Shown here in pieces: positions 8,054 through 36,214 of a stretch of 64,000 bases of DNA; position 1 is the first letter of the stretch, and each line of letters begins with the position of its first letter. The position numbers and the translations under genes were made by a program. The DNA comes from a virus. Lineage: Duplodnaviria > Heunggongvirae > Uroviricota > Caudoviricetes. The stretch lies in IMG/VR virus record IMGVR_UViG_3300023371_000005; one strand, given 5' to 3'. The notes beneath the pieces were generated by a model. It had not been told where the DNA came from. It searched no databases and saw only the letters and a program-made list of their open reading frames with translations.

Positions 8054-8059
8054 GTAAGT

Positions 8060-11507: not shown

Positions 11508-11961
11508 TTGGATGTCCTTTCAAAATATCGTCAATTATTTTATCAATATCTACTTCTTCAGCAATATCAACAATGGAACTAACTTCTTTAGTTCCTTTTA
11601 GAACAGTCATTCCCTTCAACACTTGCTCATTACAAAGCATTACAGTATTATTAGGAAATGCTTCTTGTAATTCTTTTAGAATGTTTTGGCAATCACTCAA
11701 TTTCATATTCGCAGAAATATGACATAACAGCACATCACCAGGGTCAAGAGATACTTTTTGAATTTTATATCCCTCCCAAGTTCCAGTTATTCCATCCTGC
11801 TTCACAGAAGCAGGCGGAATATAATTTGGATTTACTGCTGTTGTAGAGCGATTATTCAAATAACTATAAGGAGTGCCGGTACTATACGCGTTAGTTAAGC
11901 CAGCATAAATTTCTCTTTCTTTTTGGTATCCATTATACATCGATATTCGCCCTTTCTGCAT
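11491..11961 (-). CDS. hypothetical protein
   Basis: ORF. Confidence 0.35.
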   Translation of the reverse strand: MQKGRISMYNGYQKEREIYAGLTNAYSTGTPYSYLNNRSTTAVNPNYIPPASVKQDGITGTWEGYKIQKVSLDPGDVLLCHISANMKLSDCQNILKELQEAFPNNTVMLCNEQVLKGMTVLKGTKEVSSIVDIAEEVDIDKIIDDILKGHPNDFLH

Positions 11962-17515: not shown

Positions 17516-17786
17516 CCTCTTCTTCCTCTTGGTCGTCGTCAGGAACTTGGAAGCCAATCTATCTCGTAGGAGGGTCTTGGTCAGCAGAGGCAGCGTCCTG
17601 ACGCATCTTAATGTTCGCTTTGTTTACAATTTCACTTTGTTTGGATTTTTTTGCTTCAACCCAGGTTAAAAACCAGGCACTTACTCCATCAATAATAGGA
17701 ATGACGTATGAAACAAATATAATTCCAAGGATAAAATACAATAATTCCATATGTATATCTCCCCCTTGATTTATATAAGAATACAA
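17496..17786 (-). CDS. small membrane protein; annotated end is TAG (17559-17561), under code 15 it extends about 21 aa to TAA at 17496
   Basis: ORF with a transmembrane helix; which stop is used is ambiguous. Confidence 0.35.
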
Positions 17787-18403: not shown

Positions 18404-19936
18404 TTACTTGCTGTCGTTGTTGTCAACGATCTTGGCGCCGAGCATACCACCGACCAGAGAGGTCAGGTCCATGCCGGTTGCACCACGGAAACCTTCGGTA
18501 ATCTGAGTGATACCACTCATCATGTTACCAGCCAGCTGACCAGCATCGTTGCCAATCACGTGGATGTTAGCACCCTTATAGCCTTCGCCGATAGCGGTTG
18601 CAATCGCAGGCAGCTGCTCATACAGCACCTTGATAGCATCCAATTCCATCTGCTGCTTAGCAGCGTCACCGTACTGCTTCAGTGCTTCAGCCTTTTCCAG
18701 CATACCCTTTGCTTCAGCCTCAGCCTTAGCACGGATAGCTTCTGCTTCTGCAACACCCAGAGCCTGTGCGGCGGCAGCCTTAGCCTTACCTTCGGCCTCA
18801 ATAGCCTCAGCCAGACGCTTCTGAGCTTCTGCCTCAGCAGTTGCCAGAGCCAGGTCGGCCGCAGCCTTCTTCTCAGCCTCGATACGAGCGGCTTCTGCCT
18901 GACGCTCACGCTCAAACAGTTCAGCTTCCGCAGCCTTCTGAGCGGCGTAAGCACGTGCGTCTGCTTCCTGAGCCTCGGCATACTTCTTAGCTTCAGCGGT
19001 CTTCTTCACTTCAGCTTCCAGCTTACGCTCCTTGATAGCGACTTCACGCTCCTGGAGTTCGATAGCCTTCTCCTGACGAGCCAGGTTTGCTTCTGCTTCT
19101 GCGATTTCCTTTGCCTTACGCTGGTTCTCAGCCTCGATGGCCTTAGCAGCGTCAGCCTTTGCCTGAGCGGTGTCAGCCTGCTCCTGCATCTGAGCCTTTT
19201 CGATAGCGAACTGGGTCTGCTTCTTAGCGATCTCAGTTGCGGCCTCAACCTTGGCATCGTTAGCGGCCTTATCAGCCTTAGCCTGGGCGACAGCAACCTC
19301 AGCCTTTGCGTTAGCAGCAGCGATGGATGCTTCCTTCTTGATCTTCTCGATGTTCTCGATACCCAGGTCACGAATTACACCATTCTTATCAGAGAAGTTC
19401 TGAATGTTGAAGGTGGTTAGATCGATACCCATATCGGCCAGGTTAGGAGTGACGTTCTCCTGAATACGCTCTGCAAAGATCTTCTTGTCGCCACGGATCA
19501 GGTCCTCAAACATGGTTTGAGAAATGATTTCACGGATATTACCTTCCAGAACAGGGATTACAATATCACGGATCTGGGCAGTGGAATAGCCGGCGAACTT
19601 GGAAGCCGCAATAGCCTGACGTGCGGGATCAATGGAAATGCTCATGTTGGCAACTGCGTCAACCAGAACGTGAATTGCGTCCTTGGTGGGGATTTCCTGA
19701 CGAGAAGTGAAGTCAACCTGGATGTTTTCCAGAGTCATTCGCTGAGTCTTCTGCAGGATAGGTAGTACGAAGATACCGCCACCGGTGCGGGTCTTTACTC
19801 GACCCAGACCAGATACGATCAGAACTTCGTTAGTACCAGCGACCTTCCAGAAAGCCTTGAAGATAACGACGAATACGATGATTGCCAGAATCGCCAGACC
19901 AGCGATGGACAAAGTGGGAATCAAAAATGCGGGCAT
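18404..19936 (-). CDS. flotillin-like SPFH/band-7 membrane protein with long Ala/Glu/Lys coiled coil
   Basis: N-terminal transmembrane helix, SPFH core, then about 200 aa of AEAKA-type repeats. Confidence 0.75.
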   Translation of the reverse strand: MPAFLIPTLSIAGLAILAIIVFVVIFKAFWKVAGTNEVLIVSGLGRVKTRTGGGIFVLPILQKTQRMTLENIQVDFTSRQEIPTKDAIHVLVDAVANMSISIDPARQAIAASKFAGYSTAQIRDIVIPVLEGNIREIISQTMFEDLIRGDKKIFAERIQENVTPNLADMGIDLTTFNIQNFSDKNGVIRDLGIENIEKIKKEASIAAANAKAEVAVAQAKADKAANDAKVEAATEIAKKQTQFAIEKAQMQEQADTAQAKADAAKAIEAENQRKAKEIAEAEANLARQEKAIELQEREVAIKERKLEAEVKKTAEAKKYAEAQEADARAYAAQKAAEAELFERERQAEAARIEAEKKAAADLALATAEAEAQKRLAEAIEAEGKAKAAAAQALGVAEAEAIRAKAEAEAKGMLEKAEALKQYGDAAKQQMELDAIKVLYEQLPAIATAIGEGYKGANIHVIGNDAGQLAGNMMSGITQITEGFRGATGMDLTSLVGGMLGAKIVDNNDSK

Positions 19937-21898: not shown

Positions 21899-22627
21899 TT
21901 AACTGAAAAATGAATAACTTTGGTAGGTGTTCAAATCCAAAAGACAGAACTCACCCATAAAGAATCCACCAGTGTCAATGCACACTTTATGGCCGTCCGC
22001 ATACCAGATGGGACCGGACTCCCAATCGATATACAAATCTTCACTGATATAACATACAGGAGTATGACCATGAACAACAAGGAAGTCATCATAACCACCC
22101 TCGTTCAGTGGGTCCCAGGGATCGAAATAGTCATCTCTGTTCCAGATAAGATGCTCATCATCGGGAATGATAAGCTCTTTATCTTCGTCAGCTTCAGGAT
22201 CACTCCAATAAGGAGTATAACCCGCATGACTCAGCAGAATTCTCATTCCAAGAGCATTAGTATACTCTACATGGGTAGGCAGGTCACGCAGATACTCATA
22301 CCACTTCATGCGGTCAGGGTCCCGCTCCCAAGCTTCCATTGTAGGTCGTCCACCATTGTGAGAAGAAAGAGAATAAGAGTGATAATCCCACATGAAACCA
22401 TCATCGAGATAATCTTTGATGGCCTTTACGAGCATATCTTCATGGTTGCCCTTAATGTAAACAAATCGAGGGTCTGCCGCAACTGCCTTGATACATTCAT
22501 AGGACTGCAGGCCGCGGTCGCACGCATCGCCCAGAAAATAGACCTTATCATCGGGCTTTAAAAATGCTTGAATCTTACGAAACACTTCTAAATGCCCATG
22601 CAGGTCGCCCAGCGCATATGTAGCCAT
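21899..22627 (-). CDS. Ser/Thr-phosphatase-like metallophosphoesterase (lambda PPase/PrpE family)
   Basis: GDLHGH...GDACDRG...GNHE motifs. Confidence 0.7.
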   Translation of the reverse strand: MATYALGDLHGHLEVFRKIQAFLKPDDKVYFLGDACDRGLQSYECIKAVAADPRFVYIKGNHEDMLVKAIKDYLDDGFMWDYHSYSLSSHNGGRPTMEAWERDPDRMKWYEYLRDLPTHVEYTNALGMRILLSHAGYTPYWSDPEADEDKELIIPDDEHLIWNRDDYFDPWDPLNEGGYDDFLVVHGHTPVCYISEDLYIDWESGPIWYADGHKVCIDTGGFFMGEFCLLDLNTYQSYSFFS

Positions 22628-22897: not shown

Positions 22898-23842
22898 TTA
22901 GGGCATCTGAATGACGGGGGTATTATCGCCACCATAGATGGTAGGCAACTTACCGTCCCACTTTTCGTAGTACATCTTTTCGAGCAGATTACCAGTCAGA
23001 GATTCAGCCAGTAATCTGTTAGCTTCAGCCTGGGCCTCAGCCAACATAATCATAGCCTCAGCTTCGGCTTCAGCCTTAGCGATATTAGCTTCATTCTTAT
23101 TCTGCTGAATTACCAGTTCCTGCTCGGACGCAAACTTGGCATCGATTGCCCTCTGGATTTCGGGGTTCTCATAGGAAATGTCTTCCTTGATACCCAGGAC
23201 AGTAATGGTAATGCCGTATTCCTTGAAGTAAGGAATTACATATTCCTTGACAGCTTCCATAATCTTGCCCTTGTTGGCGCCCAGCTCAGTAGAAGTGTAC
23301 TTAGAAGTTTCAATGTTGAAACGGTCTTCAACCAGCTTCTTAATGTCGTTGTCAATAATCTGCTCCAGAGGAGTGTTATTGTAGCGATACAGGAACTTTA
23401 CGGCATCAGCTTCCTCGATCATGGTAGTACAGTTCATACCGACATAGATGCCGATGTTATCAGAACTACCGCCAAAGATGGCGCGGTTAGAAGAAGAAGC
23501 AGTGTCGTCGCCGGAATCCCAAGAGCGAGATACAGGCTTACGCTCAACGACAATCAGTTCTGCGGAAGGCTTCCATTCACCAGTCCAGCTCATGCGGCCC
23601 GTCTGGACCCAGCGGTGAGGAATCTGGACTTCTTTAGTGGCAACCTTGTGCTCAGCCAGCAGCTCTTCAGAAGCAAAGGCGGACTGAGAACTGGAATCAC
23701 CAACCAGAGGGATCAGGAAACCGGTCTGCGAGGGAGAAATCTTGGCGAACTCAGGCTTGTCATAGGGCTTTCGACAACCAGCCAGGCTCAAACACAGGAC
23801 CAGCATCAGGACGAGCAGAACCAACTTCTTTACCTTATTCAT
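22898..23842 (-). CDS. SPFH/band-7 family lipoprotein
   Basis: Signal peptide with lipobox LAGC; SPFH-like core; C-terminal AEAEAEA coiled coil. Confidence 0.6.
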   Translation of the reverse strand: MNKVKKLVLLVLMLVLCLSLAGCRKPYDKPEFAKISPSQTGFLIPLVGDSSSQSAFASEELLAEHKVATKEVQIPHRWVQTGRMSWTGEWKPSAELIVVERKPVSRSWDSGDDTASSSNRAIFGGSSDNIGIYVGMNCTTMIEEADAVKFLYRYNNTPLEQIIDNDIKKLVEDRFNIETSKYTSTELGANKGKIMEAVKEYVIPYFKEYGITITVLGIKEDISYENPEIQRAIDAKFASEQELVIQQNKNEANIAKAEAEAEAMIMLAEAQAEANRLLAESLTGNLLEKMYYEKWDGKLPTIYGGDNTPVIQMP

Positions 23843-24199: not shown

Positions 24200-24433
24200 T
24201 TAGAAGGTTGGGCCTTTACGCTCGTTGAAACAGACATCTCTTGCTGGGTAAAGGTATTTCTGAAAAACAGGACAAAAATATTTTTCCTCGTAAGTTATAT
24301 CATAGTATTCTGGATGGTCTTTGCCAGCCCAGTAAAGTTTTCGTTCTTCCATGATAACTTTTGAGCCATCAAAGAATGGACATTTACGATATAAGCAGGT
24401 GTGCCACCAGAATTGTTCATCAAATTCTTTCAT
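24200..24433 (-). CDS. hypothetical protein
   Basis: ORF. Confidence 0.3.
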   Translation of the reverse strand: MKEFDEQFWWHTCLYRKCPFFDGSKVIMEERKLYWAGKDHPEYYDITYEEKYFCPVFQKYLYPARDVCFNERKGPTF

Positions 24434-24990
24434 TTGGCCTCCTGGATATACTGCCGAATTTCTTCTCGGTAGTTATAGACAAAAGACGGAACTAACTGTT
24501 TTACAGCATAGTCGCCACCCTCCATCTGGAATGCCTGCCGCACCAGAGTAGCGCTGATACCCTCATATCGGTCCAGGAATTTGAAGCGAAGTAACCATCT
24601 TTCATCCTGTGCGAACCAACCGAGCATGATGCGGGGATCGTCACTGTAGTAGATGGTCATATCAGAATCCTTGGTCTTGCCGAACATCTTGATGTAAAGG
24701 TATCGGCCCCAACCGTGACTGTTGTCGCTTTCATCAGTCATATCATCCAAGGGATAGACATGAATGTGTTTCAGATCTTCGGTAGAAAATTGCTCGTGTA
24801 AAGCACCTTCCAGGAGCATCAGACGAAAATCAATGGGCAGAGGATTGCGCTTGGTGCCAGACTTGTCTGCGGAACCCACGAAAATGTGCAGGTCGCAATG
24901 ATTTGCGGTGCAATCTTCATAAGCCTTCTTCACCATGTTCATATGACCATTATGAAAAGGCTGTGCGCGGAACAGAATTACTCCAACCAT
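24430..24990 (-). CDS. nicotinamide/nicotinate mononucleotide adenylyltransferase (NadM-type NMNAT)
   Basis: (H/T)xGH motif FHNGH and ISATLVR (SxTxxR); strong SD upstream of ATG 24990. Confidence 0.75.
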   Translation of the reverse strand: MVGVILFRAQPFHNGHMNMVKKAYEDCTANHCDLHIFVGSADKSGTKRNPLPIDFRLMLLEGALHEQFSTEDLKHIHVYPLDDMTDESDNSHGWGRYLYIKMFGKTKDSDMTIYYSDDPRIMLGWFAQDERWLLRFKFLDRYEGISATLVRQAFQMEGGDYAVKQLVPSFVYNYREEIRQYIQEAK

Positions 24991-25000
24991 ATAATCCTCC

Positions 25001-25327
25001 TTACTTGATTTCCAGTTCTCTTGCTTGTTCGCTAGTGATACCGAAGTACTCCTCAAACCCCTCAATGTCAGCGGGGTCGCAGGCACCTGAACAGATACAT
25101 TTTCCGTCATGAAGCACCCAGTACCACATACCATCGGGATACTCAACCAGGTGCTCCATAAGATTGAAAAAGTCTTTCAAATTGGAACAGCCATAGACCG
25201 CAACCAGACCTTTTCCGGTAAATTCTTCGGTAAAATAAACATACGGATCAAGTACTATACGATCCCTAATTTTGTCAGTAAAAGCTACAATGATGGGGGC
25301 ATCAATATTTACTGTCATTCTTATCAA
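25001..25327 (-). CDS. hypothetical protein
   Basis: ORF. Confidence 0.3.
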   Translation of the reverse strand: MIRMTVNIDAPIIVAFTDKIRDRIVLDPYVYFTEEFTGKGLVAVYGCSNLKDFFNLMEHLVEYPDGMWYWVLHDGKCICSGACDPADIEGFEEYFGITSEQARELEIK

Positions 25328-25575
25328 TCCCTCTCTTTAATTGTGTATTTATCCCAACCATATTTGGGAATCATTTTCATAAGTGTTATTGAATCTTTTA
25401 CGCTAAAAAGTTGACAATGCTCGCAAAAAGTCTTATAAAGAAAATCTTCTGTTAGAGATAAGACCATATCTTGAGCATCTTCCAGAGAGTCACAAAAACA
25501 TACAATATCATAGCTGTATCGCTCATCACGATAGACTTTTAATCTATTTTTCTCGTAAATAGCATACTTGCACAT
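25324..25575 (-). CDS. hypothetical protein
   Basis: ORF. Confidence 0.3.
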   Translation of the reverse strand: MCKYAIYEKNRLKVYRDERYSYDIVCFCDSLEDAQDMVLSLTEDFLYKTFCEHCQLFSVKDSITLMKMIPKYGWDKYTIKERD

Positions 25576-25604
25576 CTTTTCCCCTCTCTTTACTTTGTAT
25601 ATAT

Positions 25605-25633
25605 ATTATATCATATTTTTTTATAAAAATCAA
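25605..25633 (-). promoter_or_regulatory. promoter TTGATT-17-TATAAT (minus)
   Basis: Motif. Confidence 0.6.
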
Positions 25634-25635
25634 AA

Positions 25636-25658
25636 AGACCCCTCAAAATGAGGGGTCT
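25636..25658 (-). terminator. hairpin terminator
   Basis: Stem agacccctc-aaaat-gaggggtct. Confidence 0.6.
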
Positions 25659-25662
25659 CGTA

Positions 25663-26106
25663 TCACAGTTCGGAAATCAATTCTTTACGCTTTTCCATAA
25701 GAATTTCACCAAGCCAGTTTTTACCAGCAATTTCTGCACATTTGGGACAGAAGCAGGAACCCCAAGTATTGTCATGCCAAGAGTTGCCTTCAATAAGAAT
25801 GCAATCATTTGTAGCAATCAACTTACTTGCGAGTTTAGGGTGCGTATCAAATTTCCGCCCTACGCCAACGCGCATAGCAGTGTATTTGACCTGTTCCCAA
25901 TCCTCACGCAACTGAACTTGACGGCCCATTCGCTTAGCCTTACCCGGAGTTGCGGCGGCCGCAATCTTCTTTCTTTCCTCTTGGTCGAGGGTTTTCATTG
26001 CCTGAAAGAAGTGTTCGTTGGTAGGATATTCAATTCCATCATAGGTAAAAGGGGCATAATAGAAGTTACTTAGAAAAGCGTATTTTCCATCAAATTCAGT
26101 AATCAT
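25663..26106 (-). CDS. NADAR (YbiA-like, DUF1768) ADP-ribose-processing N-glycosidase
   Basis: Fold signature YAFLSNFY...NEHFFQAMK...GNSWHDNTWG. Confidence 0.75.
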   Translation of the reverse strand: MITEFDGKYAFLSNFYYAPFTYDGIEYPTNEHFFQAMKTLDQEERKKIAAAATPGKAKRMGRQVQLREDWEQVKYTAMRVGVGRKFDTHPKLASKLIATNDCILIEGNSWHDNTWGSCFCPKCAEIAGKNWLGEILMEKRKELISEL

Positions 26107-26115
26107 ACTTCCTCC

Positions 26116-26949
26116 TTAGAAATCAATAAACGGGGTATCTTCATGGAGGACTTCAAAGCAACCTCCATGTCGATTGGAACTACCTTCCCATTTTCTGGTG
26201 CGGGCACGAATATAGGGAATATTCAGCATACGCATTTTATGAGCATTTCGCTCATGACGCTCTTCAATTAGTCGCAGAGTTTCATAAGAAGGCGTCTTAT
26301 TGTCCAGAAGATAAGCATCGAGGACTTCATAAGTGAAGCCGAAATTATCTTCATCGGTTTTACCGGTCATGCCATCGCCAGGAGCCTTATGAACCAGCTC
26401 AGCAGGCAGATTCAGAGCATCACCGATAGCCAAAATTTCACGAACATAAAAGTCGTAAAAAATGGAGAAATCACCGGCCATATCGCCAAACTTAGTAGTA
26501 TAGCCGACATACATTTCAGATGCATTGCCAGTATGAACCACTCGACCGCCGATCAATGCGGCGATGCCATACAGAGTAGTCATGCGCAGGCGAGCAGGAG
26601 TATTAGTGTAGAATACATCATTGCCACCACCGAAATACTCTTCGGGGATTGCTTCCACCAAAGCATCCATGGTGGAGCCAATATTGACGACAGTATAGGG
26701 CATATGCAGATGCTCTACGACTTTGTAAGAATCTGCGATGTCAGCCTGTTCGCCACAGGGCATCAGAACACCGAAGACATTCTCAGAACCCAAAGCGCGA
26801 CACAACAGGGCAGCCGCAATTGTAGAATCCTTGCCACCGGAGATGCCGATAACAGCTTTGGTGGTTTTACCACCATTCTTCACGAAATACTTTTTGATTT
26901 CGGTAATCATATACTGGATTTCCAGTTCAGCGTCAAATGCTCTACCCAT
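26116..26949 (-). CDS. nadE: NH3-dependent NAD+ synthetase
   Basis: PP-loop GISGGKDS; NadE family length. Confidence 0.85.
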   Translation of the reverse strand: MGRAFDAELEIQYMITEIKKYFVKNGGKTTKAVIGISGGKDSTIAAALLCRALGSENVFGVLMPCGEQADIADSYKVVEHLHMPYTVVNIGSTMDALVEAIPEEYFGGGNDVFYTNTPARLRMTTLYGIAALIGGRVVHTGNASEMYVGYTTKFGDMAGDFSIFYDFYVREILAIGDALNLPAELVHKAPGDGMTGKTDEDNFGFTYEVLDAYLLDNKTPSYETLRLIEERHERNAHKMRMLNIPYIRARTRKWEGSSNRHGGCFEVLHEDTPFIDF

Positions 26950-26951
26950 TT

Positions 26952-27458
26952 TTACTCCTCCAAATAGTAGATATATACTTCATAGTCCTCATCAAGGACT
27001 TGCTCGATCATTGTCTTGATGACCTCCCAGTTGCCGCCACCCAGGCCGCAACCAATATGGGATGGGAAGCCAATTGTTGCGCCTTCTGGAACAAATTCTC
27101 GGATATGTCCGAGGCAGCTCCAGAAGCCATCATAAGAAGTGTATCTGCGGCCATCATAACCATAGTGCTCTTGGGCGAACATATTGATTACAGTATGAGT
27201 TTTATCCACCTGGACTAGTTGAATATCGCCTAAAAGCACTTCGCTGGTCTCGGGACAATGTTCAAAACCACCGCAGTTACGCAGAATATTATCCTCAGTA
27301 TCATTATACTTCTGGATATATTCGCTGTAAACTACGGGCCACTTATCTTTAATTGCCTTAGCGATGCCAGAGCCCATGCGACCCTGGCAATTCACCTGAT
27401 GGCAGTAATAGTCAACATCTGCATCAAGCAGACTACCTTTTACATGGTAAATACTCAT
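26952..27458 (-). CDS. macrodomain protein (ADP-ribose-binding/hydrolase)
   Basis: Macro motifs HQVNCQGRMGSGIA and IGCGLGGG. Confidence 0.8.
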   Translation of the reverse strand: MSIYHVKGSLLDADVDYYCHQVNCQGRMGSGIAKAIKDKWPVVYSEYIQKYNDTEDNILRNCGGFEHCPETSEVLLGDIQLVQVDKTHTVINMFAQEHYGYDGRRYTSYDGFWSCLGHIREFVPEGATIGFPSHIGCGLGGGNWEVIKTMIEQVLDEDYEVYIYYLEE

Positions 27459-29248
27459 TACTTACCCCACAGTCTTTCGCGGATTTCAGCCAGACTCTGT
27501 CTATTGGTCAATTTACCATTATAGAACACAGTCTGAAGCAGATTCTTTTCGCCCAGAGTATCTTCAAATGCGTGCTCGTCGGTATAGGACTCACCATCCA
27601 GAGCAACAACACAGCAACCCTTCTGGCTCTTTTTCCAAGCCAGAGCTTTAGGCTTCTTGAAGATATTGATACCATTACCAACGCAGTCTTCGGCATAAGT
27701 AGCCTTTACAGCAATGCCAAAAGTATCACGAGTATAAGGACCAGCATTGGTACCGTTCCACTTACCAGCGAACTGGAGAGTACCTTCATCGTCAGCACAA
27801 ACCAGAGCCATCATGAACATAGAACCAGCGCCCATAACGACATTATTGGCAGCGTAGCCCTGGGCGGCCAGACGCTTGTAAATTTCATTGGCATAGTCAG
27901 GCAGAATGCTGTCGCCGTAGATTGCCTTTAGATGGGGGTCCAGAACCTTATAGCCCTTTTCATTCACAGTATGACCGACAATCTGGTCCAATGCCCAAAC
28001 GGTGCCGAGCAGTTCCAGAGAAGGCTGAATTTCTTCCCACTCAAAAGCATAGTCTTCAACGTAGTAATACTTACGATCAGTCCATGCGCCACGCTCATTA
28101 GTCCAGTCAGGATAGACATTCAGAGCGTAGAACTTGTCATTGAAATGGAAATACAGGACAGTTTCTTCCTCAACACCGCAGTCACGGCAGAAATCATACA
28201 TCCAGTCCTTAGTGAATTCCTTGTCGGAAAACAGCTTTTCAGCTTCTTCGTCATCATAAGGAGTCAGCCAGTCAATGGGCTTACCAGCCAGGATTTCGAC
28301 AGGATTACCGGAATCGCCACGCACCAGAAGAGTACCATCATGAGCCATAATTTCTCTTTTGCACTGAGGAAGCAGGTTCATAACCAGATTTTCGTAGTCA
28401 TAAGAGTCGGAAACCATGGAGAAACTGTGGTGTAGATAAATTTCACTCAGCAGGCGCTTGATGTGAGTAATTTCATCACCATCAACGGCGAAGTTAGAAC
28501 ACATGACAGAGTGTTCGGTGGAGATAGCACCGAAGCCGACAGGCTCATTTTCGATGTTGCAATCATAATGCTTTTCCATCCACATGATTGCGGGAACAGT
28601 TGCAGTATTATGGTGGCTCAACAGCCATGCGCCAGAAGCCTTGATAGCAGATTCAGCGGAGTGCTGACCACGCATAGAGAAATCACCGATCATCTTCCAA
28701 GGACTTACAGAAGAGTCGCAGGTTTTTTCAACCCAAGTATTAACGACCTTGCGGTAACGATAACCGACTTCAGCCGCAATCTGCGTATGCCACATGGAGC
28801 AGGACAGCAGAGTTTCGATGGTATTTACCAGCCAGACGAAATTGGGATGAGTATTGGAAATCTCAATCTGAGGTACACCAACTTTAGTGCGAGACCCCTC
28901 GGGGACAGCACGAATTTCCAGGGGTAGATAACCCAACTCCCACAGGTCACGAATCTTACGATCCTCATAAGAACCGGGTCCCATGGTATAGGTCAAAACA
29001 CGGTTATACTCATACAGAACTTCATCCAGATCACGGTCAAAGAACCAAGTTCTGAAACCATTGATCAGATATTCGTCAATGAAAGCCTGCAGACCAAAGA
29101 AAGTGATATGGTCTACATCATCCAGGCGACTTATTCTGGGAGTGTAATAGGAAACCATCTTGGTCAGACCCTTGGGATACTGCTCATGGTGAGTAGCTTT
29201 ATAGAAGTCAATCAGCAGAAGAGGATTGTAATTATCCATAGTTATCAA
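27458..29248 (-). CDS. nadV: NAMPT-family phosphoribosyltransferase (NadV-like or Namat-like) with about 100-aa insertion
   Basis: N-terminus NPLLLIDFYKATHHEQYP and C-terminal PRTase regions match the NAMPT family. Confidence 0.8.
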   Translation of the reverse strand: MITMDNYNPLLLIDFYKATHHEQYPKGLTKMVSYYTPRISRLDDVDHITFFGLQAFIDEYLINGFRTWFFDRDLDEVLYEYNRVLTYTMGPGSYEDRKIRDLWELGYLPLEIRAVPEGSRTKVGVPQIEISNTHPNFVWLVNTIETLLSCSMWHTQIAAEVGYRYRKVVNTWVEKTCDSSVSPWKMIGDFSMRGQHSAESAIKASGAWLLSHHNTATVPAIMWMEKHYDCNIENEPVGFGAISTEHSVMCSNFAVDGDEITHIKRLLSEIYLHHSFSMVSDSYDYENLVMNLLPQCKREIMAHDGTLLVRGDSGNPVEILAGKPIDWLTPYDDEEAEKLFSDKEFTKDWMYDFCRDCGVEEETVLYFHFNDKFYALNVYPDWTNERGAWTDRKYYYVEDYAFEWEEIQPSLELLGTVWALDQIVGHTVNEKGYKVLDPHLKAIYGDSILPDYANEIYKRLAAQGYAANNVVMGAGSMFMMALVCADDEGTLQFAGKWNGTNAGPYTRDTFGIAVKATYAEDCVGNGINIFKKPKALAWKKSQKGCCVVALDGESYTDEHAFEDTLGEKNLLQTVFYNGKLTNRQSLAEIRERLWGK

Positions 29249-29451
29249 ATTCCTTTCTCAAATCCGCAAACGGAAATTTCAATGTCATTGGGAAATACAT
29301 CAGCCTGATGTGCTACATAATCGGTAACCGCTTCCATATAATTTTCAACTGCGGTTTCAAATTCCTCTTTACCGCAGTCATCTTCGAGACCGACTAATTC
29401 AGGCTCTATTGTGAAGAGGTATGTGACGGACACATAAGCAACTTTTTCCAT
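29245..29451 (-). CDS. hypothetical small protein
   Basis: ORF. Confidence 0.3.
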   Translation of the reverse strand: MEKVAYVSVTYLFTIEPELVGLEDDCGKEEFETAVENYMEAVTDYVAHQADVFPNDIEISVCGFEKGI

Positions 29452-29717
29452 TACTTATACCCTCTCTTCTTTCTTAGCTTACGCAGACCTTTGCTTTCCC
29501 ACTTATTCGGGACGTGTTCTCTGGTCGCCAGCTCAGCCTTGAGCTGGGCACGGTAGCAGTTCAACTGATCCCAATCTTCGTTCCCCCAACAATGCTGACA
29601 ACCCCAGGTGTAGGTGCTTCTCAGTTCAGCCAGTAGCTGACGAGTATGCATTTTAGTCATTTCTTCGGGAGTGTGGATATTGATATCTTTGAAACCTGTA
29701 TAACAGTAAAAACTCAT
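29451..29717 (-). CDS. hypothetical protein
   Basis: ORF. Confidence 0.3.
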   Translation of the reverse strand: MSFYCYTGFKDINIHTPEEMTKMHTRQLLAELRSTYTWGCQHCWGNEDWDQLNCYRAQLKAELATREHVPNKWESKGLRKLRKKRGYK

Positions 29718-29749
29718 TTTTTTTTCACTTCCTTACTTTTTGTATATAT

Positions 29750-29778
29750 ATTATATCATATTTTTTATAAAAAATCAA
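29750..29778 (-). promoter_or_regulatory. promoter TTGATT-17-TATAAT (minus)
   Basis: Motif. Confidence 0.6.
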
Positions 29779-29781
29779 AAA

Positions 29782-29805
29782 AGTCCCTCTGAACGCAGAG
29801 GGACT
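29782..29805 (-). terminator. hairpin terminator
   Basis: Stem agtccctctg-aacg-cagagggact. Confidence 0.6.
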
Positions 29806-29812
29806 CTCAATA

Positions 29813-30097
29813 TTACTTGATAAATGTTTCGCAGAACGTCTCATATAAGGATTTTGCGAAAATCCAACAAACTTTGAATACGAACCAAATCATCCAGCCT
29901 ATCCAGCCAATGACTACAATTCCGGCGATAACTACGCCGACAGAAGCAGGAATGACAAGGAATAGAGCTTCGAGAAAAGAGGCTACAAGCCAGATTGCTG
30001 CTCCGACTAGGGCAAAGCCAAAAATGGTACAAACCATTGCCAGACAGGCAAGTAAAAATTTAATCATTGGGAATTTCAATCCTTTCAAAGACCTCAC
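29813..30097 (-). CDS. small multi-pass membrane protein
   Basis: Hydrophobic ORF. Confidence 0.4.
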   Translation of the reverse strand: MRSLKGLKFPMIKFLLACLAMVCTIFGFALVGAAIWLVASFLEALFLVIPASVGVVIAGIVVIGWIGWMIWFVFKVCWIFAKSLYETFCETFIK

Positions 30098-30851
30098 AAA
30101 TATCTTCGGTAAAACGCAATTTTACGGGGAAATAACCTTTGCGCTCGACCTCATCACGATTGATTATTACGATATTATCAGAGTGGAACCAATCAGGTAA
30201 GAAATTTGCGGGAGCGACTGCCAAAGAAGTGCCAACGATAATCATAAGGTCAGCTGCAGATACATGAGCCATTGCCATTTGCCACTGAAGACCCGGTAAA
30301 CTTTCGCCATATAGGGTGATATCGGGGCGGATAGTGAACTCGCCGCCGCATAGAGGGCACCTCGGCACACCATTTTTATCATCATAGTTGCCATCCATTA
30401 CATCTTCTGGAATGAATGTCTCACATAAGCAGCCAGGGCAGTACCAGTCAGCCATGGTGCCATGAATTGTGTCAACTACTTTTGAACCGGCTTTTTCATG
30501 GAGTCCGTCAATATTCTGAGTAACCACAGACACAGTTCTTGCTTGCTGCAGCTCAGAGATTTTTTTATGAGCGATGTTCGGTTCAGCATTGCGAAAATCC
30601 ATATTATTTCGTAAATACTGGAAGAACCGCTCAGGTTCCATTTTGAGGCAGGTGTGGCTCAACATATATTCTGGCTCATCTTCTTCACTGGTATTGTATA
30701 AGCCATTATTGCTGCGGAAGTCCGGAATGCCGGAGCCGGTAGAGATACCAGCTCCGGTCAAAAATACGATACGCTTGGCTCCCGCAATCATTTCATTCAA
30801 TTGTTTTATGCGTTCGTCAAAGCTTTCCATTTTAGTTATCTCCTGTTCCAT
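30060..30851 (-). CDS. cobB: Sir2-family NAD-dependent deacylase/ADP-ribosyltransferase (sirtuin)
   Basis: GAGISTGSGIPDFR, Zn module CPGC...CPLCGG, GTSLAV. Confidence 0.85.
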   Translation of the reverse strand: MEQEITKMESFDERIKQLNEMIAGAKRIVFLTGAGISTGSGIPDFRSNNGLYNTSEEDEPEYMLSHTCLKMEPERFFQYLRNNMDFRNAEPNIAHKKISELQQARTVSVVTQNIDGLHEKAGSKVVDTIHGTMADWYCPGCLCETFIPEDVMDGNYDDKNGVPRCPLCGGEFTIRPDITLYGESLPGLQWQMAMAHVSAADLMIIVGTSLAVAPANFLPDWFHSDNIVIINRDEVERKGYFPVKLRFTEDICEVFERIEIPND

Positions 30852-31341
30852 TCAGCTGGGCTTCCAGAACGACGTCGCCCTGAGCCATAGCCTTATCCAC
30901 AGCCATCTTAGCAGACTTCATATCACAACCCTGCTTTTTCAAGAAAGGCATTACATTCTTTACGATAACGCCCTTATTGCCAGAAGTGATAGAAACAGCA
31001 TTGCAGATACCCCAGTAATTGACCATCTTGACGATTTCATCAACATCGTCAATGACCTTGGGAGCATATTCCTCCACAATAGCCAACTTTTCGCGGTATT
31101 CAGCCTTGCGGGCCGCATACTTCTCACCGTCGGGGCAGGTATCGATCATTTCTTTTACAGTCTTGACATACTTTGTCAATACTTCATCAACCAGTGTATC
31201 AGTGATTGCAACACGGGTTTTGTCGGCAGTAGCAGCCTTGTCAATGGAAGCTACCATATCGGCGATAGTTAGACGACGAAGTTTATTACCCTCTTTTAAA
31301 GCTGTCGTCATATCAGCTTTGAGGGTTTCATACTTATCCAT
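30832..31341 (-). CDS. GatB/YqeY-domain protein
   Basis: MDKYETLKADMTTALKEGNKLRRLTIADMVASI resembles the YqeY domain N-terminus; SD before ATG 31341. Confidence 0.55.
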   Translation of the reverse strand: MDKYETLKADMTTALKEGNKLRRLTIADMVASIDKAATADKTRVAITDTLVDEVLTKYVKTVKEMIDTCPDGEKYAARKAEYREKLAIVEEYAPKVIDDVDEIVKMVNYWGICNAVSITSGNKGVIVKNVMPFLKKQGCDMKSAKMAVDKAMAQGDVVLEAQLNGTGDN

Positions 31342-31358
31342 TGGAGTATGCTCCTTTC

Positions 31359-32189
31359 TTAGTGAAATATAGTAATCCAACCGCCCCAGCCAGCACCGTC
31401 ATAGGGACCATCAATCAGCATCTGGGGGAAAATGGATTCAGTGGTATAGATATGCTTGATCAGACCGGACTCGGGCAGATCGCCAAGAGTAACAGTTTCT
31501 TCCAGGTGGGTCACATACAGACTTACGCTCTTGGCACCTGCTTCCAGCAAAGCCTTTGCGGAGTGGTAGAAAGTGCCACCTCTGGAGCAAATATCATCAA
31601 CAATCAGAACATCTTTGTCTTTGATGTTCTCGGCATTGATAATATCTAGACCTAAAATCTTGCCAGTAGCCCAGTCTCGCTTTTTCATACCAAAAGCATA
31701 AGGTAGAGGGGACTTATCAGAGTAGCGCTTCATTGCGCCCTCATCGGGGAAGAACAGAACTTCAGCCTTGGAAGCCAGAGTAGCCTTATGAATATAAGGC
31801 TCAACACCAGTATCCTCTACTCGATCAAGCAGAGCCAGGCTCACGTTGCTATGGGCGTCCCGCACCCAAACAATCTTGAAGTTCAGAGAGTTAATAATCT
31901 CGCAGAAATACTTCAGAGTAAAGACGTCAGAATCAGACTTTACTCGATCCATGCGAGCGTGGGGAATGTAGGGCATATCCAGAACAACATCGGTGTTGCC
32001 AAAGTGGCGGTCGATATGACGCTTCACGCAGATTAGAGTGAAGAGTTCGCTATCGTCTTCATAAAGCCATTCCACCTTGATGGCGCCTCTGTTATCAAAC
32101 ATCTCTTCTGGATTGAGCTTGATAAGCAAAGAGTGATCGGGGAACATGGACTGACCGCTACGAATAGAAATATTACCTACTCTAATCAT
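31359..32189 (-). CDS. PRPP-synthetase-family pyrophosphokinase (Prs/Adps-like)
   Basis: PRTase type-I motif VLIVDDICSRGGT and N-domain segment PYIPHARMDR. Confidence 0.7.
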   Translation of the reverse strand: MIRVGNISIRSGQSMFPDHSLLIKLNPEEMFDNRGAIKVEWLYEDDSELFTLICVKRHIDRHFGNTDVVLDMPYIPHARMDRVKSDSDVFTLKYFCEIINSLNFKIVWVRDAHSNVSLALLDRVEDTGVEPYIHKATLASKAEVLFFPDEGAMKRYSDKSPLPYAFGMKKRDWATGKILGLDIINAENIKDKDVLIVDDICSRGGTFYHSAKALLEAGAKSVSLYVTHLEETVTLGDLPESGLIKHIYTTESIFPQMLIDGPYDGAGWGGWITIFH

Positions 32190-32201
32190 TGGCTATCCTC
32201 C

Positions 32202-32810
32202 TTAGATAATGTTGATCTGGCACAGCTTCATTGCTTCCAGGGCGGTCTTGTGGGACTCAGGAGTCACGCAAGCGCAGCAGTCAGCAACGACATTGACAGG
32301 AACTTCGGGCAGAGTTGCCTTACACAGAATTGCATTGGACAGGACGCAGATGCCAGTGCATACGCCCATCAGAGTGATTTCCTCGATTTCAAAGCGGTCA
32401 TTCATATCATACAGAATATTCTGCAGTTCAACAGAGCCAAAAGTAGGCTTCTTGACGCGGATGGGGTTCTCGTCATAAACGGGATATGCATCATAACCGG
32501 ACATATAGCGATTTTCGCCCTGGGCATGATGAATCCAGGCTTCAAAGACTTCATCGACGATGCCATAGCCAGCGGTGCCTTCGATGCAATGAGGAACGGG
32601 CAGGTTCTTACCTTCCAGAGTATTCATATAGTCATCGGTATGAGTATCCTTGGTGAAGATGATAGCGGTATTGGGATCAGCAAGTTGATGAATGGTTTCC
32701 GCAACCAGAGGAACGATAGCCTGGGCTTCGGGAGTACCCAGTGCGCCATCGATAAAGTCCCTCTGCATATCAACGACAATGACTACCTTAATCTTTTCCA
32801 TATTTTTCAA
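32202..32810 (-). CDS. pncA: isochorismatase-family hydrolase, probable nicotinamidase
   Basis: VVIVVDMQRDF and catalytic Cys segment LMGVCTGICV. Confidence 0.65.
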   Translation of the reverse strand: MKNMEKIKVVIVVDMQRDFIDGALGTPEAQAIVPLVAETIHQLADPNTAIIFTKDTHTDDYMNTLEGKNLPVPHCIEGTAGYGIVDEVFEAWIHHAQGENRYMSGYDAYPVYDENPIRVKKPTFGSVELQNILYDMNDRFEIEEITLMGVCTGICVLSNAILCKATLPEVPVNVVADCCACVTPESHKTALEAMKLCQINII

Positions 32811-32835: not shown

Positions 32836-32864
32836 ATTATAACATATTTTTTTTGAAAAATCAA
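32836..32864 (-). promoter_or_regulatory. promoter TTGATT-17-TATAAT (minus)
   Basis: Motif. Confidence 0.6.
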
Positions 32865-32867
32865 AAA

Positions 32868-32892
32868 AGGCTCTCTTGTTCAGAGAGCCTTT
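32868..32892 (-). terminator. hairpin terminator
   Basis: Stem ggctctctt-gttc-agagagcc. Confidence 0.6.
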
Positions 32893-32896
32893 TCTT

Positions 32897-33621: not shown

Positions 33622-33814
33622 TTGGGAATAATAAACGGGTTCCGCAACGGAAACAATAACGCTTCTCATCGTCCCATATGACAGAGCCACCGGGCAGACA
33701 GTCAGGTTCAAGCATTCCGCAATTAGAACATATTCGATTACCTTCTGGAGTCCATTTCCACACTCCCACTTTAGCGGGAGGTGGAGGAGGAGGTGGAGCT
33801 TTAAGAATGTTCAT
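33611..33814 (-). CDS. small zinc-ribbon protein with poly-Pro segment
   Basis: PPPPPPP and CSNCG...CFRCG. Confidence 0.4.
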   Translation of the reverse strand: MNILKAPPPPPPPAKVGVWKWTPEGNRICSNCGMLEPDCLPGGSVIWDDEKRYCFRCGTRLLFPKDT

Positions 33815-34457
33815 TCTTATCTTCCCTCTTATAGATATACGCCCATCGGGTGTATTCATCATAACACTGAACTTTGATAGCCTCATTGAGAGTGCTAATA
33901 TTCGTGCGGAGAATAAATAAAATGTCCGCCAAGTCAGCATATCTCTCCTTTGCCCGTTTCAATACGGGGAGCAACAGAACCTCTGTTTCTGCGACATTTT
34001 TACCCATGGCATCTTTGGTAAAGGATATGGGCATATCGCCTAGGTTGTTGTATCTGTCAAGAGCCTTACAAATCAAAGCTTCCCGGCAGTCAAGGAGTTC
34101 ATTGAAATAACGGCATTTTGTTTCAATTTTATCTAAGTCAGTATCGAACTTAGTGATAGTCATATACTGAACCGCACGCTTAACAGTATCGTTTACCGGC
34201 AGATACTCGGGCCGCACACCGCAATCTTCTACGGTATCATGAAGTAGGATGGTAGCAATGATATTATCATCGCGCAAGCCAAGAGCCACGGCATAGCAGG
34301 CCATTGACAGGGGATGAACAATATAAGGCGTTCCATCTTTGCGAGTCTGCCCACTGTGATGTTCACGGGCGAACTGCAAAGCGGTGATGGACTGCTTCAT
34401 ATTTGCGCCGATTAGATAACCTCTGAGATAGGTATACATTTTTTCAACGTTAGCCAT
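33801..34457 (-). CDS. HD-domain hydrolase of the RelA/SpoT-type (small alarmone hydrolase-like)
   Basis: HHSGQTRKDGTPYIVHPLSMA...ILLHDTVEDCG parallels SpoT/Mesh1 HD motifs. Confidence 0.65.
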   Translation of the reverse strand: MANVEKMYTYLRGYLIGANMKQSITALQFAREHHSGQTRKDGTPYIVHPLSMACYAVALGLRDDNIIATILLHDTVEDCGVRPEYLPVNDTVKRAVQYMTITKFDTDLDKIETKCRYFNELLDCREALICKALDRYNNLGDMPISFTKDAMGKNVAETEVLLLPVLKRAKERYADLADILFILRTNISTLNEAIKVQCYDEYTRWAYIYKREDKNEHS

Positions 34458-34750: not shown

Positions 34751-36214
34751 TTACTCGCCTGCTTCATCTAAGCCATCAGCCTCTTCCATATCAGGTGCTT
34801 CGGCAGTGTCTTTGATAATGCCTTCCAAAACCTTGAAATTGAAGTTCTTATGCTTATAAGCAGTAAAAGTAGGACGATTGATTACACGAACTACGACACC
34901 CTCACGGATATGAGTGGGGTCGATAGGCTCGGGACCATCGAAGAACTGTTCAGCCTTTTCCAGTACGAACTGGCCTGCGTCAGTCAGCTCGCAAGAAGTT
35001 CCGGTGAAAACTTCCTCGTCGGGGATAAAACCGGCCCAGTGGACAGGCACAGTCTTGACGCCCATGTACATACAACGGTAACGCATAAAGTCGGGAGTGT
35101 ACTCCACAACCTGGCCATCTTCGTTGGTCATGGTCATACGGTATACGTAGATATCGCTCTGAGGCTTGGACACGCTGAATGCGGTATCGGGGTTAGAAGG
35201 ATCGGCAACTCCAGCAACCGCAACTCCCTTTGGATCGCAGCCGTAAGAGAAGGTAGTGACCTTACCATACTGCTTTACGAAAGCCTTATCCTTCAACTTC
35301 TCATTGGAGCAGGTGCTCATGATAGGAGTACCATCATGAGTAAAGCCAACGATTTCGTAGTAGATAGTTTCACCCTTCCACAGCTTACCCTTGAAGAAGT
35401 CATGGTACTGCTTACGGAACTCATTAGAGCCGTAGAAACCACCATCGAAGCTATCCAGGATAGTACGACGAGTGCCGGTTACGATGTCGTAATCAAACAC
35501 AGGAGTGCAGTGCTTTTCCGCAAACTTCTGAGCCTTTGCCGCAGGCAGAATCTTACCCAAGAACTTGTGGAAAATGTTATTGGTAGTATAAGAATGTCCA
35601 TCAAAAGACTGGACAAATGCAGTACGGCCAGAAGTGCCATGTAGCTTACGGGTGATTTCGATGTAGTCACCGGGCTTGAATTCGCTCAGATGGTAAACCA
35701 ACTGCTCAGTATCCTTGTGTTCGAAGAAAGTAGGTGCCATATTCTTACGCTTTAGCTTCTGGCCAGCGTGACGCTTCACACCATTACCCTTATTCTTGCC
35801 ACGAGGGATATATTTCTGACAGATTTCATGACCGTTTAGCACGGTGATAGGAGTGCCAGGAGTCAGTTCATCCAGCTTAGCGCCGGTGTAAGCCAGACAC
35901 TCGATAGGCAGGAACAGACCATCGGACTGCTCACCGCGAAGCTTGATTGCGCGCACATTGCGCTTGGCGGGGTCTAGGTATCCGCCGGAGATATTCTTGC
36001 CGAACTCATCATAGACTGCCAGCAAGCCGTTCTTTTCACAGAACTCCATAGACAACTGACCGTCTACGGGGAAGTAAACACCCAGCTGTCCTTCAAAATA
36101 CTTATCCTTTGCAACACAGACGGTGTTCTCAAAGCAGGTTGCTAGAACCAGATTATCTGCGTTGCCGTGCTCACGCACATTCATTAGATTGGTGATGTAT
36201 CCACAGTAAGACAT
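34751..36214 (-). CDS. putative ATP-dependent RNA ligase (Rnl-like nucleotidyltransferase)
   Basis: Candidate lysine motif (RKLHGT) and C-terminal EGVVVR motif V; 487 aa; weak match. Confidence 0.45.
   Translation of the reverse strand: MSYCGYITNLMNVREHGNADNLVLATCFENTVCVAKDKYFEGQLGVYFPVDGQLSMEFCEKNGLLAVYDEFGKNISGGYLDPAKRNVRAIKLRGEQSDGLFLPIECLAYTGAKLDELTPGTPITVLNGHEICQKYIPRGKNKGNGVKRHAGQKLKRKNMAPTFFEHKDTEQLVYHLSEFKPGDYIEITRKLHGTSGRTAFVQSFDGHSYTTNNIFHKFLGKILPAAKAQKFAEKHCTPVFDYDIVTGTRRTILDSFDGGFYGSNEFRKQYHDFFKGKLWKGETIYYEIVGFTHDGTPIMSTCSNEKLKDKAFVKQYGKVTTFSYGCDPKGVAVAGVADPSNPDTAFSVSKPQSDIYVYRMTMTNEDGQVVEYTPDFMRYRCMYMGVKTVPVHWAGFIPDEEVFTGTSCELTDAGQFVLEKAEQFFDGPEPIDPTHIREGVVVRVINRPTFTAYKHKNFNFKVLEGIIKDTAEAPDMEEADGLDEAGE

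Follow-up and report, generated by a model that had tools for sequence, protein, structure and literature searches.

A NARP1-lineage NAD+ reconstitution island with a rebuilt transferase pocket in a large uncultured phage, and a candidate nicotinate route to NAD+

Introduction

The depletion of NAD+ is among the commonest antiviral strategies of bacteria, and the pathways NARP1, NARP2, NARP3 and NARP1-AP represent metabolic answers of phages to it. All of them have already been published, as has the synergy between RyDEP and NARP1. NARP1 comprises the enzymes Adps and Namat (Osterman et al., 10.1101/2024.02.11.579819), for which structures are available (PMC12774641 for Namat and PMC13586617 for Adps), and NARP1-AP has the composition Adps-Adpp-Namat (Osterman et al., 10.64898/2026.01.28.702374). 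A 64,000-nt stretch of the virus record IMGVR_UViG_3300023371_000005 (hereafter, the window) raises the question of how NAD+ would be rebuilt by a phage whose island of NAD-related genes resembles several of these systems at once. The island occupies positions 24430..32810, where all coding is on the minus strand, and a first-pass annotation had described it as a NAD+ reconstitution and ADP-ribose-processing island of an anti-defence kind.

That description is supported by the lineage of the two central enzymes, which is that of NARP1, and by the presence of Adpp-like and NADAR families. With high confidence, the locus can be regarded as a NARP1-derived NAD+ reconstitution island. Regarding its chemistry, we lean towards the view that this is an expanded locus whose core, a four-enzyme derivative of NARP1, would use nicotinate instead of nicotinamide and would proceed through nicotinic acid adenine dinucleotide (NaAD).

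The kinase and the transferase belong to the NARP1 lineage

The transferase of the island (27458..29239, with the open reading frame (ORF) extending to 29248; 593 aa) is recognized as a NAMPT-family protein with 395 bits. It scores 351 bits against the structure of SpβL1 Namat (9w5w), compared with 259 bits against bacterial NadV and ~136 bits against mammalian NAMPT. Its AlphaFold2 model reached a predicted local distance difference test score (pLDDT) of 83.7 and a predicted template modelling score (pTM) of 0.83, and Foldseek retrieved Namat as its best structural match, with a template modelling score of 0.88-0.90 on the target. In a tree rooted on the Nampts of NARP2 type (KVP40 NadV and Margaery Nampt), the transferase falls in the clade of Adps-associated enzymes. 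The choice between NadV and Namat, which the first-pass annotation had left to profile searches, is therefore settled in favour of the Namat lineage, even though the protein is not a canonical Namat.

The second protein of the pair exhibits the PRPS fold (31359..32189, 276 aa) and had been left in the same way between Prs and Adps. It shares 36% identity with the Adps gene product of SpβL1 (E 1e-40, 129 bits); of the two genes of the SpβL1 Adps-Namat pair, the upstream one is taken here to encode the characterised Adps. The best solved PRPS reaches only 67 bits, and all NCBIfam Prs models remain far below their cutoffs, indicating that the protein is an Adps-like ADP-ribose (ADPR) pyrophosphokinase. 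It retains the residues F18, R87, H121, D161, K185, D212, D213 and F221 (numbering of ICP1 Adps), including the catalytic Lys (K162 in SpβL1, K185 in ICP1), and the PP loop agrees with that of the SpβL1 enzyme. In fact, every residue conserved in at least 90% of 160 Adps homologs from loci of both types described below is present in the island protein, and Adps conserves the same residues in both types. It also represents the short form of the enzyme, with 276 aa versus 280 in ICP1, 272 in SpβL1 and 315-326 in class I PRPS chains; judging from this length and from the extent of the alignment, it appears to lack the C-terminal α11-α12 regulatory region of PRPS.

Bit scores, structural match and tree position thus place both proteins in the NARP1 lineage, and this membership is solid. 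As in NARP1, a kinase of the Adps clade with its catalytic and ADPR-binding residues is encoded by a phage within 10 genes of a Namat homolog (five genes lie between the two). Unlike NARP1, the window distributes Adps and the transferase between two operons. The first-pass annotation, which had equated the PRPP-synthetase homolog and the NAMPT-family protein with Adps and Namat, was correct about the lineage.

The nicotinamide pocket and the adenine clamp of the transferase have been rebuilt

The structure of Namat defines two features of this enzyme: an Asp215 that forms a hydrogen bond with the amide of nicotinamide, and a selectivity clamp for adenine, whose signature reads GSxΦxΦxΦTRD (PMC12774641). 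The transferase of the island lacks both D215 and this SCH signature. It holds NTATVPAI in place of GTDTIPAI, so that D215 is replaced by Ala, and A242 is replaced by Ser. A comparison of 170 sequences from IMG/VR and GenBank, including that of the window, divides the family into two types, with 83 sequences of an Ala/Ser type (hereafter, Ala type) and 87 of the canonical Asp/Glu type (Asp type). At the D215 site, Ala is found in 82 of the 83 members of the Ala-type clade and Ser in the remaining one, versus Asp or Glu in all 87 canonical sequences, while position 242 is Ser in 83/83 and Ala in 87/87, respectively. Since the outgroup Nampts share the canonical pocket, the Ala-type pocket represents the derived state.

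The clamp has changed as well. In the window, 23 inserted residues separate GSMFMMALV from GPYTRD, and Y396 is lost. Most Ala-type sequences carry an insertion at this place (median +9 residues, range 0 to +42), versus none of the 87 canonical ones, and their consensus is GSF[ST][FM]xC[LI]E, insertion, P[YF]TRD, with Cys or Ala at the position of Y396.

In total, ten positions separate the two types cleanly (A161G, H187G, G213N, D215A, A229C, S239G, A242S, R299H, P307G and G356K). Two of them are residues of the nicotinamide pocket, and another four or five are no more than three residues away from such a residue, so the differences from NARP1 in and around the pocket extend beyond D215 and A242. 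By their offset from the human numbering, H187 and G213 presumably correspond to H191 and G217 of human NAMPT, and the structural hits include inhibitor-resistance mutants of the human enzyme at these two residues.

None of the ribose, phosphate and catalytic contacts varies across the two types. F189, R192, R306, D308, R399, D13 and Y15 are found in the window and in all 170 sequences, save for two N-terminal gaps, and the TEHS motif with the catalytic His (H245) is also kept. The same applies to the SCL stacking Arg40, which is Arg in the transferase of the window and in 82 of the 83 members of its clade. The likeness to Namat therefore comprises the fold and the residues R192, H245, R306, D308, R399 and Arg40, and the unlikeness the base pocket and the clamp.

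Several studies bear on the residue at the D215 site. In human NAMPT, the equivalent D219 contacts the amide of nicotinamide, while the nicotinate enzyme hNAPRT presents a Ser at this position (PMC4442680), and mutagenesis has identified Asp219 as a specificity determinant of NAMPT (PMC7096376). In SpβL1 Namat, the mutation D215A causes a ~8-fold loss in the synthesis of NAD+ from nicotinamide (PMC12774641).

The transferase also contains an insertion of ~80 aa (residues ~322-405), predicted with a pLDDT of ~90-95 to form a helix and a three-stranded sheet. It was considered as a clade-defining feature and rejected, as its distribution is patchy in both types (17/83 Ala-type and 7/87 Asp-type sequences), the phages Tsamsa (locus L017; handles of this form designate related loci) and Kolpuevirus (L018) among them. 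Such a distribution suggests repeated loss or domain shuffling.

The rebuilt pocket is tied to a NAD synthetase and a nicotinamidase

Two further genes of the island encode enzymes of deamidated NAD+ metabolism. The first one is a PncA-like nicotinamidase (32202..32801, 199 aa; the mechanical ORF starts at a TTG at 32810), with 82 bits to the Pfam Isochorismatase family. Its best matches in the PDB are the nicotinamidases 1ILW and 3PL1, while the NCBIfam PncA model remains below its cutoff (36 versus 174). The catalytic triad D14/K121/C155 and the metal site D55/H57/H74 are invariant in an alignment of 75 sequences, save for one gap at D14; D14, C155, D55, H57 and H74 presumably correspond to D10, C133, D52, H54 and H71 of 1ILW, in the numbering of Pyrococcus horikoshii PncA. 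The second one is NadE (26116..26949, 277 aa), with a single synthetase domain and no glutaminase domain (Pfam 163 bits; TIGR00552 154 bits, cutoff 63.65). Its SGGxDS P-loop is invariant in 82/82 homologs, and its best PDB match is 2E18 (113 bits), deposited as an NH3-dependent NAD+ synthetase.

To determine how these genes are distributed, homologs of the island genes were mapped on the flanks of the transferase gene in ~275 related phage loci. When at least 4 kb were available on both flanks, NadE accompanied the Ala/Ser-type transferase in 72/72 loci and the Asp/Glu-type transferase in 0/65; for the PncA-like protein the figures were 71/72 and 0/65. Motif scans for the two pocket types, which retrieved at least 119 and at least 120 contigs, provided a replication set. 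Among its non-duplicate loci, NadE was found in 22/23 of the Ala/Ser type and 0/16 of the Asp/Glu type, and the PncA-like protein in 13/17 and 0/17. The Fisher P obtained for this covariation (1e-40) is not a real probability, given the sister relationship of the two types. Adps is present in both types, in essentially all loci with enough flank, and the usual order, PncA-Adps-transferase-(Macro)-NadE, recurs across more than 100 viral contigs. Among phages in general NadE is uncommon, with only 51 positive entries in 50,697 GenBank phage records; this rarity, together with the conserved gene order, argues against a clustering by chance. Moreover, the four genes are still together while the identity between transferases within the clade has fallen to ~34-50%, indicating that they work as a unit.

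The first-pass annotation had stated that NadE and PncA add a deamidated route to the island. The route itself stands; however, both genes are not an addition, but part of the conserved core together with Adps and the transferase. Since they covary with the remodelled nicotinamide pocket, the deamidated route is probably the main one. Similarly, the loss of the two Namat-defining features and the gain of two obligatory enzymes imply a different substrate and a different intermediate. In the compared loci, canonical NARP1 never has either gene, whereas the Ala-type module always comes with NadE and nearly always with PncA.

An explanation that would leave the chemistry of NARP1 unchanged is that the transferase still makes NAD+ from nicotinamide and ADP-ribose pyrophosphate (ADPR-PP), and that PncA and NadE are a separate booster which feeds the Preiss-Handler pathway of the host through its PncB and NadD. 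The intact catalytic core of Adps and of the transferase is compatible with it, as are the promiscuity of Namat-family enzymes in vitro, where they also use phosphoribosyl pyrophosphate (PRPP), and the existence of a few Ala-type loci without PncA. Nevertheless, PncA would destroy the very nicotinamide that such a transferase needs, a change of D215 to Ala cuts the nicotinamide-dependent activity as mentioned above, and it would be unexpected for an unrelated booster that NadE and PncA never appear with an Asp-type Namat (0/65 and 0/16) and yet accompany the remodelled pocket. We consider this explanation unlikely, although still deserving of attention.

As for the literature, no paper was found that links NARP1 to NadE or to a nicotinamidase, or that describes a Namat clade with an Ala pocket, in a search that covered a minority of subscription journals, so a prior description is possible. 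In a targeted reading, neither the Osterman 2024 preprint nor the survey by Iyer et al. (2022) mentions NadE or PncA in connection with NARP1, and the 2022 survey, which deals with viral NAD-ADPr systems, names neither of the two enzymes at all.

A candidate deamidated pathway and the evidence for and against it

From the pocket residues and the co-occurrence of genes, we infer a specificity for nicotinate, an NaAD intermediate and the in vivo roles that follow. A host NADase (Thoeris ThsA, DSR, SIR2-HerA, SEFIR and similar) would cleave NAD+ into ADPR and nicotinamide. The PncA-like enzyme would then convert nicotinamide into nicotinate and NH3, while Adps would convert ADPR into ADPR-PP. The remodelled transferase, with its changes H187G, G213N, D215A, S239G, A242S and P307G, would join nicotinate and ADPR-PP into NaAD, and the NH3-dependent NadE would finally amidate NaAD to NAD+. 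Single-domain NadE enzymes use free ammonia (PMC3376133), so the NH3 released in the first step could serve as co-substrate of the last one. We give about even chances to the proposal that the Ala-type transferase catalyses an undescribed reaction (nicotinate + ADPR-PP -> NaAD + PPi) and that it defines a fourth, 'deamidated' pathway in large phages of gut Clostridia.

Such a route would share several features with the Preiss-Handler pathway (PncA-PncB-NadD-NadE), in which a nicotinamidase also acts first, NaAD is the penultimate compound, as proposed here, and an NH3-dependent NAD synthetase acts last. It would differ from it in that PncB and NadD would be replaced by Adps and a single ADPR-transferase step leading to NaAD.

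Several observations weigh against a nicotinate pathway. The specificity of hNAPRT is not explained by its Ser alone (PMC4442680), and for this reason an Ala at the D215 site is no proof of nicotinate use. The adenine clamp has also been rebuilt, with loss of Y396 and gain of an insertion, so the donor could differ from ADPR-PP; in addition, the conserved Phe392 of the clamp is Met in the window, and the insertion was modelled at low confidence. NadE is nearly as similar to 3FIU of Francisella tularensis (100 bits) as to 2E18, and 3FIU is described in the literature as an NMN synthetase. The covariation may reflect a single event kept by descent, the two types being sister clades. PncA is missing from the neighbourhood in a few Ala-type loci (L038 and 4/17 of the motif-found loci), and in one (L252) NadE is not within the fetched stretch. 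The loci without PncA would still fit a nicotinate route, since NadE is obligatory and the host can also supply nicotinate. Finally, canonical Namat works in Bacillus subtilis, which means that no host-driven reason for a nicotinate route is apparent. Possibly, the deamidated pathway represents an adaptation to the removal of free nicotinamide by certain hosts or defences.

The window also encodes an adenylyltransferase-like protein (24430..24990, 186 aa) that resembles the NadM or archaeal type of enzymes acting on nicotinamide mononucleotide (NMN) or nicotinic acid mononucleotide (NaMN). Only families of NMN adenylyltransferases (NMNAT) match this protein, all of them below cutoff (45 bits for the archaeal NMNAT, versus cutoffs of 127 and 181), but it conserves the motifs HNGH (HxGH) and ISATLVR (ISxTxxR) and matches 1F9A and 1EJ2 in the PDB at E 2e-6. 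The first-pass annotation had taken the NAMPT-like and NMNAT proteins as a NARP2 pathway. As in NARP2, represented by KVP40 Nampt/NadV and NMNAT/NatV, a NAMPT-family and an NMN-adenylyltransferase-like enzyme do coexist in one phage. However, the assignment does not hold, because the transferase is only 28% identical to KVP40 NadV and lies outside the Nampt clade, Adps is present, and the adenylyltransferase is a NadM-like core without Nudix domain that is absent from most relatives (it accompanies 4 of the 83 Ala-type sequences, that of the window included).

This protein is also an argument for a PRPP-based salvage or a full Preiss-Handler pathway, in which the transferase would make NMN or NaMN, the NMNAT would adenylate it, and NadE would finish the synthesis or act as an NMN synthetase. 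Archaeal NadM has been reported to accept both NMN and NaMN (PMC3376133), and the altered adenine clamp of the transferase and the similarity of NadE to the Francisella protein point in the same direction. Nonetheless, the rarity of the NMNAT contrasts with the presence of Adps in essentially all loci with enough flank, Adps retains its ADPR-binding and catalytic residues, and the transferase groups with Adps-associated enzymes and not with the Nampts of NARP2. As the main route, this possibility seems to us quite unlikely; it could operate as a secondary bypass in the phage of the window. Within the nicotinate pathway proposed above, the NadM-like enzyme would convert NaMN or NMN derived from PRPP into NaAD or NAD+, independently of ADPR, and this side route could still have NadE as its last step.

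Accessory functions encoded around the core

The accessory genes of the island (those for the macro, NADAR, Sir2, YqeY and NMNAT proteins) would broaden both the input of the pathway and the spectrum of defences it answers. Between the transferase and NadE genes, and directly abutting the former, lies a gene for a macro-domain protein (26952..27458, 168 aa). It matches phrog_335, annotated as 'phosphatase', with 131 bits, and Pfam Macro with 22.5 bits (cutoff 22), and it shares 35% identity (E 2e-34) with the macro protein of the Adps-macro-Namat operon of Vibrio phage K412. A macro gene is found in 52/82 Ala-type loci and 19/86 Asp-type loci. In NARP1-AP, the macro enzyme Adpp converts the aRES product ADPR-1''-phosphate into ADPR (10.64898/2026.01.28.702374). 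Although the island gene resembles that system in its position, the K412 match and the phrog_335 match, it differs in gene order (transferase-macro-NadE versus Adps-macro-Namat) and in a simultaneous resemblance of its product to the macro domain of DarG (57-59 bits). Poa1p (6LFQ) is matched only weakly (E 0.003-0.006), while BT1257, SCO6735, DarG and TARG1 score higher. On the basis of its context and its matches to macro proteins embedded in NARP1 loci, we favour an Adpp-like over a DarG/TARG1-like function, and the protein would convert ADPR-1''-phosphate, and possibly O-acetyl-ADPR, into ADPR; given the DarG resemblance, it could still be a DNA-ADP-ribose hydrolase.

A metallophosphoesterase encoded at 21899..22627 (minus strand) was considered as the phage phosphatase linked to aRES and rejected, because it is a NinI-like Ser/Thr phosphatase (phrog_246, 128 bits) and the phosphatase described in publications consists of a macro domain. 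A NinI-like metallophosphatase is also encoded downstream of the module in ~20 relatives.

Next to NadE, the island contains an eighth NAD/ADP-ribose gene which the first-pass annotation had not listed, encoding a NADAR-domain protein (25663..26106, 147 aa; Pfam NADAR 110 bits, cutoff 35). Its homologs are present in 19 of 169 fetched loci. Stand-alone phage NADAR proteins such as AdfN can neutralise DarTG1 (PMC11825919), and the island protein is likewise a stand-alone protein of similar size. Its relationship to AdfN is nevertheless distant (24 bits to Phage_30_3, and 54 bits, below cutoff, to NF053876), and, unlike AdfN, it is co-transcribed with NAD-rebuilding genes. By analogy with the anti-DarT1 factor AdfN, it may strip ADP-ribose from DNA.

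The sirtuin (30060..30830, with the ORF extending to 30851; 256 aa) is a canonical, CobB-like zinc enzyme (NF001752, 245 bits, cutoff 221) with the motifs GAGIS and QNIDGLH and two CxxC motifs that form a Cys4 zinc module. It is not matched by the defence-type SIR2 models of PADLOC. This enzyme is a consumer of NAD+, and it can be speculated that its product, O-acetyl-ADPR, could be recycled through the macro protein and Adps. Outside the island, the ligase at 6011..7999 (minus strand, 662 aa) is a NAD+-dependent enzyme, as had been noted before, and of LigA type (Pfam DNA_ligase_aden 150 bits, plus OB, HhH and BRCT domains). The rebuilt NAD+ would be consumed by this ligase and possibly by the sirtuin.

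The presence of LigA and of a canonical sirtuin raises the alternative of a general metabolic augmentation, according to which the island would supply both enzymes with NAD+ while the phage replicates its large genome, regardless of immune NADases in the host; in fact, jumbo and large phages often carry genes for NAD salvage (PMC9503650). On the other hand, Adps uses ADPR, a cleavage product of NAD+, and hence comes into play only once NAD+ has been degraded (10.64898/2026.01.28.702374), and the Adpp-like macro and NADAR proteins match families with demonstrated roles in counter-defence. We regard augmentation as very unlikely to be the explanation of the island, bearing in mind that it is compatible with a counter-defence function and that the two are not mutually exclusive.

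Upstream of the sirtuin gene lies a gene for a YqeY/GatB-like protein (30832..31341, 169 aa; Pfam YqeY 36 bits, phrog_1460), which the first-pass annotation had not listed either. A YqeY/GatB-C-terminal-like protein is encoded beside Adps or Namat in 13 sequences of both types, including that of the window; examples are found in L017 (9941..10378, Tsamsa gp191), L041, L100, L118 and L158. This protein could be an unrecognised accessory of NARP1.

Three operons behind a recurrent terminator/promoter cassette

Profile searches located all seven NAD-related genes of the first-pass annotation at the coordinates it had given, apart from the choice of start codons, and the same gene boundaries were obtained from gene calls on an independent 183-kb metagenome contig with identical proteins. 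The claim that each of these genes has its own promoter is, by contrast, wrong. A promoter-like element, TTGATTTTTATAAAAAAATATGATATAAT, which holds an extended -10 and an ATATAT tail, occurs in 18 near-identical copies on the minus strand of the window and in none on the plus strand. The copies are found at 305, 2726, 13902, 21887, 22856, 24184, 25633, 29778, 32864, 33598, 37481, 39007, 43390, 45365, 48531, 51144 and 56378, with a weaker one at 51927, and most of them lie directly 3' of a GC-rich hairpin followed by a T-run. Only three copies (32864, 29778 and 25633), each of them after a hairpin terminator, serve the eight NAD genes, which are therefore arranged in three operons with one copy each.

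The first operon starts from the element at 32836..32864 (TTGATT-17-TATAAT with TG, directly after a hairpin at 32863..32895) and comprises the genes for the PncA-like protein, Adps, YqeY, Sir2 and, as the last one, a small hydrophobic and probably membrane protein of 84 aa (29813..30067), ending at the terminator hairpin 29779..29808. The second one starts from the adjoining element at 29750..29778 and is headed by two small ORFs of 88 and 68 aa (29245..29717), which precede the genes for the transferase, the macro protein, NadE and NADAR; it ends at the terminator hairpin 25635..25659. The third one, with its element at 25605..25633, contains two small ORFs of 83 and 105 aa (25001..25575), the NMNAT gene and an ORF of 77 aa. 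Inside each operon, the genes abut or overlap. None of the six small ORFs of the operons has a match in Pfam or PHROGs, and four of them, also searched with PADLOC, gave no match either; among the related loci, a homolog of the 88-aa ORF is present in L013 only. The combination of TTGATTTTTATAAAAAAATATGATATAAT and hairpin looks like a phage-specific terminator/promoter cassette that divides the region into short operons.

Relatives of the island and phage context

A megablast search of the island against GenBank phages gave no match, and its relatives are detectable at the protein level only. The 120 best clusters for the transferase from a database of 5.8 billion proteins are all derived from metagenomes, and they hold the motif NTAT in 117 cases and GSAT in 1, with no motif found in 2. 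The Ala-type module is present in at least 140 distinct viral contigs. The combination of genes in the window had been called unusual. This is true for the full set of eight genes, found together only in close relatives on contigs of ~130-190 kb (L013, L014, L019 and L020), but not for the macro gene, which, as mentioned above, most relatives also carry.

The only named complete genome with the arrangement PncA-Adps-transferase-macro-NadE is that of Phage Phass-1 (L088, OQ749652; 376..4524 and 5483..9921), a human-gut phage that uses genetic code 15 and in which the module adjoins a large tRNA array including the suppressor tRNA-Sup-CTA. No tRNA genes were found in the window.

Dozens of metagenome assemblies contain proteins identical to those of the window, the largest of the contigs being in the 0.2-1 Mb class, and in a scan of genome collections related contigs appeared only in metagenome-assembled genomes of gut Clostridia, probably as binned phage. 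The window probably belongs to a large uncultured phage of gut Firmicutes. It also encodes GyrA, GyrB and a PIN-PhoH fusion (8428..13828 and 16271..17557, minus strand), two SPFH/Band-7 proteins (18404..19936 and 22898..23842) and an RNA-ligase-like protein. The latter (34751..36214, minus strand, 487 aa) holds a PHA02142 OB-fold and a weak RNA-ligase domain, and is encoded upstream of the NAD module in ~25 related contigs. Just upstream of the island, a 218-aa HD_4/SpoT-like hydrolase (33801..34457, minus strand), which resembles small alarmone hydrolases, is possibly a further manipulator of nucleotide signals. Further away, an 833-aa protein (48569..51070, minus strand) exhibits the shoulder and vault-repeat domains of the Major Vault Protein (Pfam 78 and 35 bits), an unexpected fold in a phage, and the segment 58001..60000 has a GC content of 0.25, versus 0.35-0.48 elsewhere in the window.

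Implications for phage counter-defence

In a conserved lineage of uncultured phages, the base pocket of the NARP1 transferase has been rebuilt and is tied to a nicotinamidase and a NAD synthetase. If the proposed pathway is true, the enzymatic reaction and its intermediate NaAD would both be new to phage counter-defence, and the pathway would mean that a few substitutions in the pocket can re-target an enzyme of the Nampt fold. It would also provide a rule for the annotation of genes currently labelled NAMPT, NAPRT or Prs, based on NTAT versus GTDT and on an adjacent NadE. Furthermore, it would suggest that phage and host also compete for the nicotinamide half of the cleavage products. With Adpp-like, NADAR, sirtuin and NMNAT functions stacked on this core, the island represents a compact model of layered NAD/ADP-ribose warfare.

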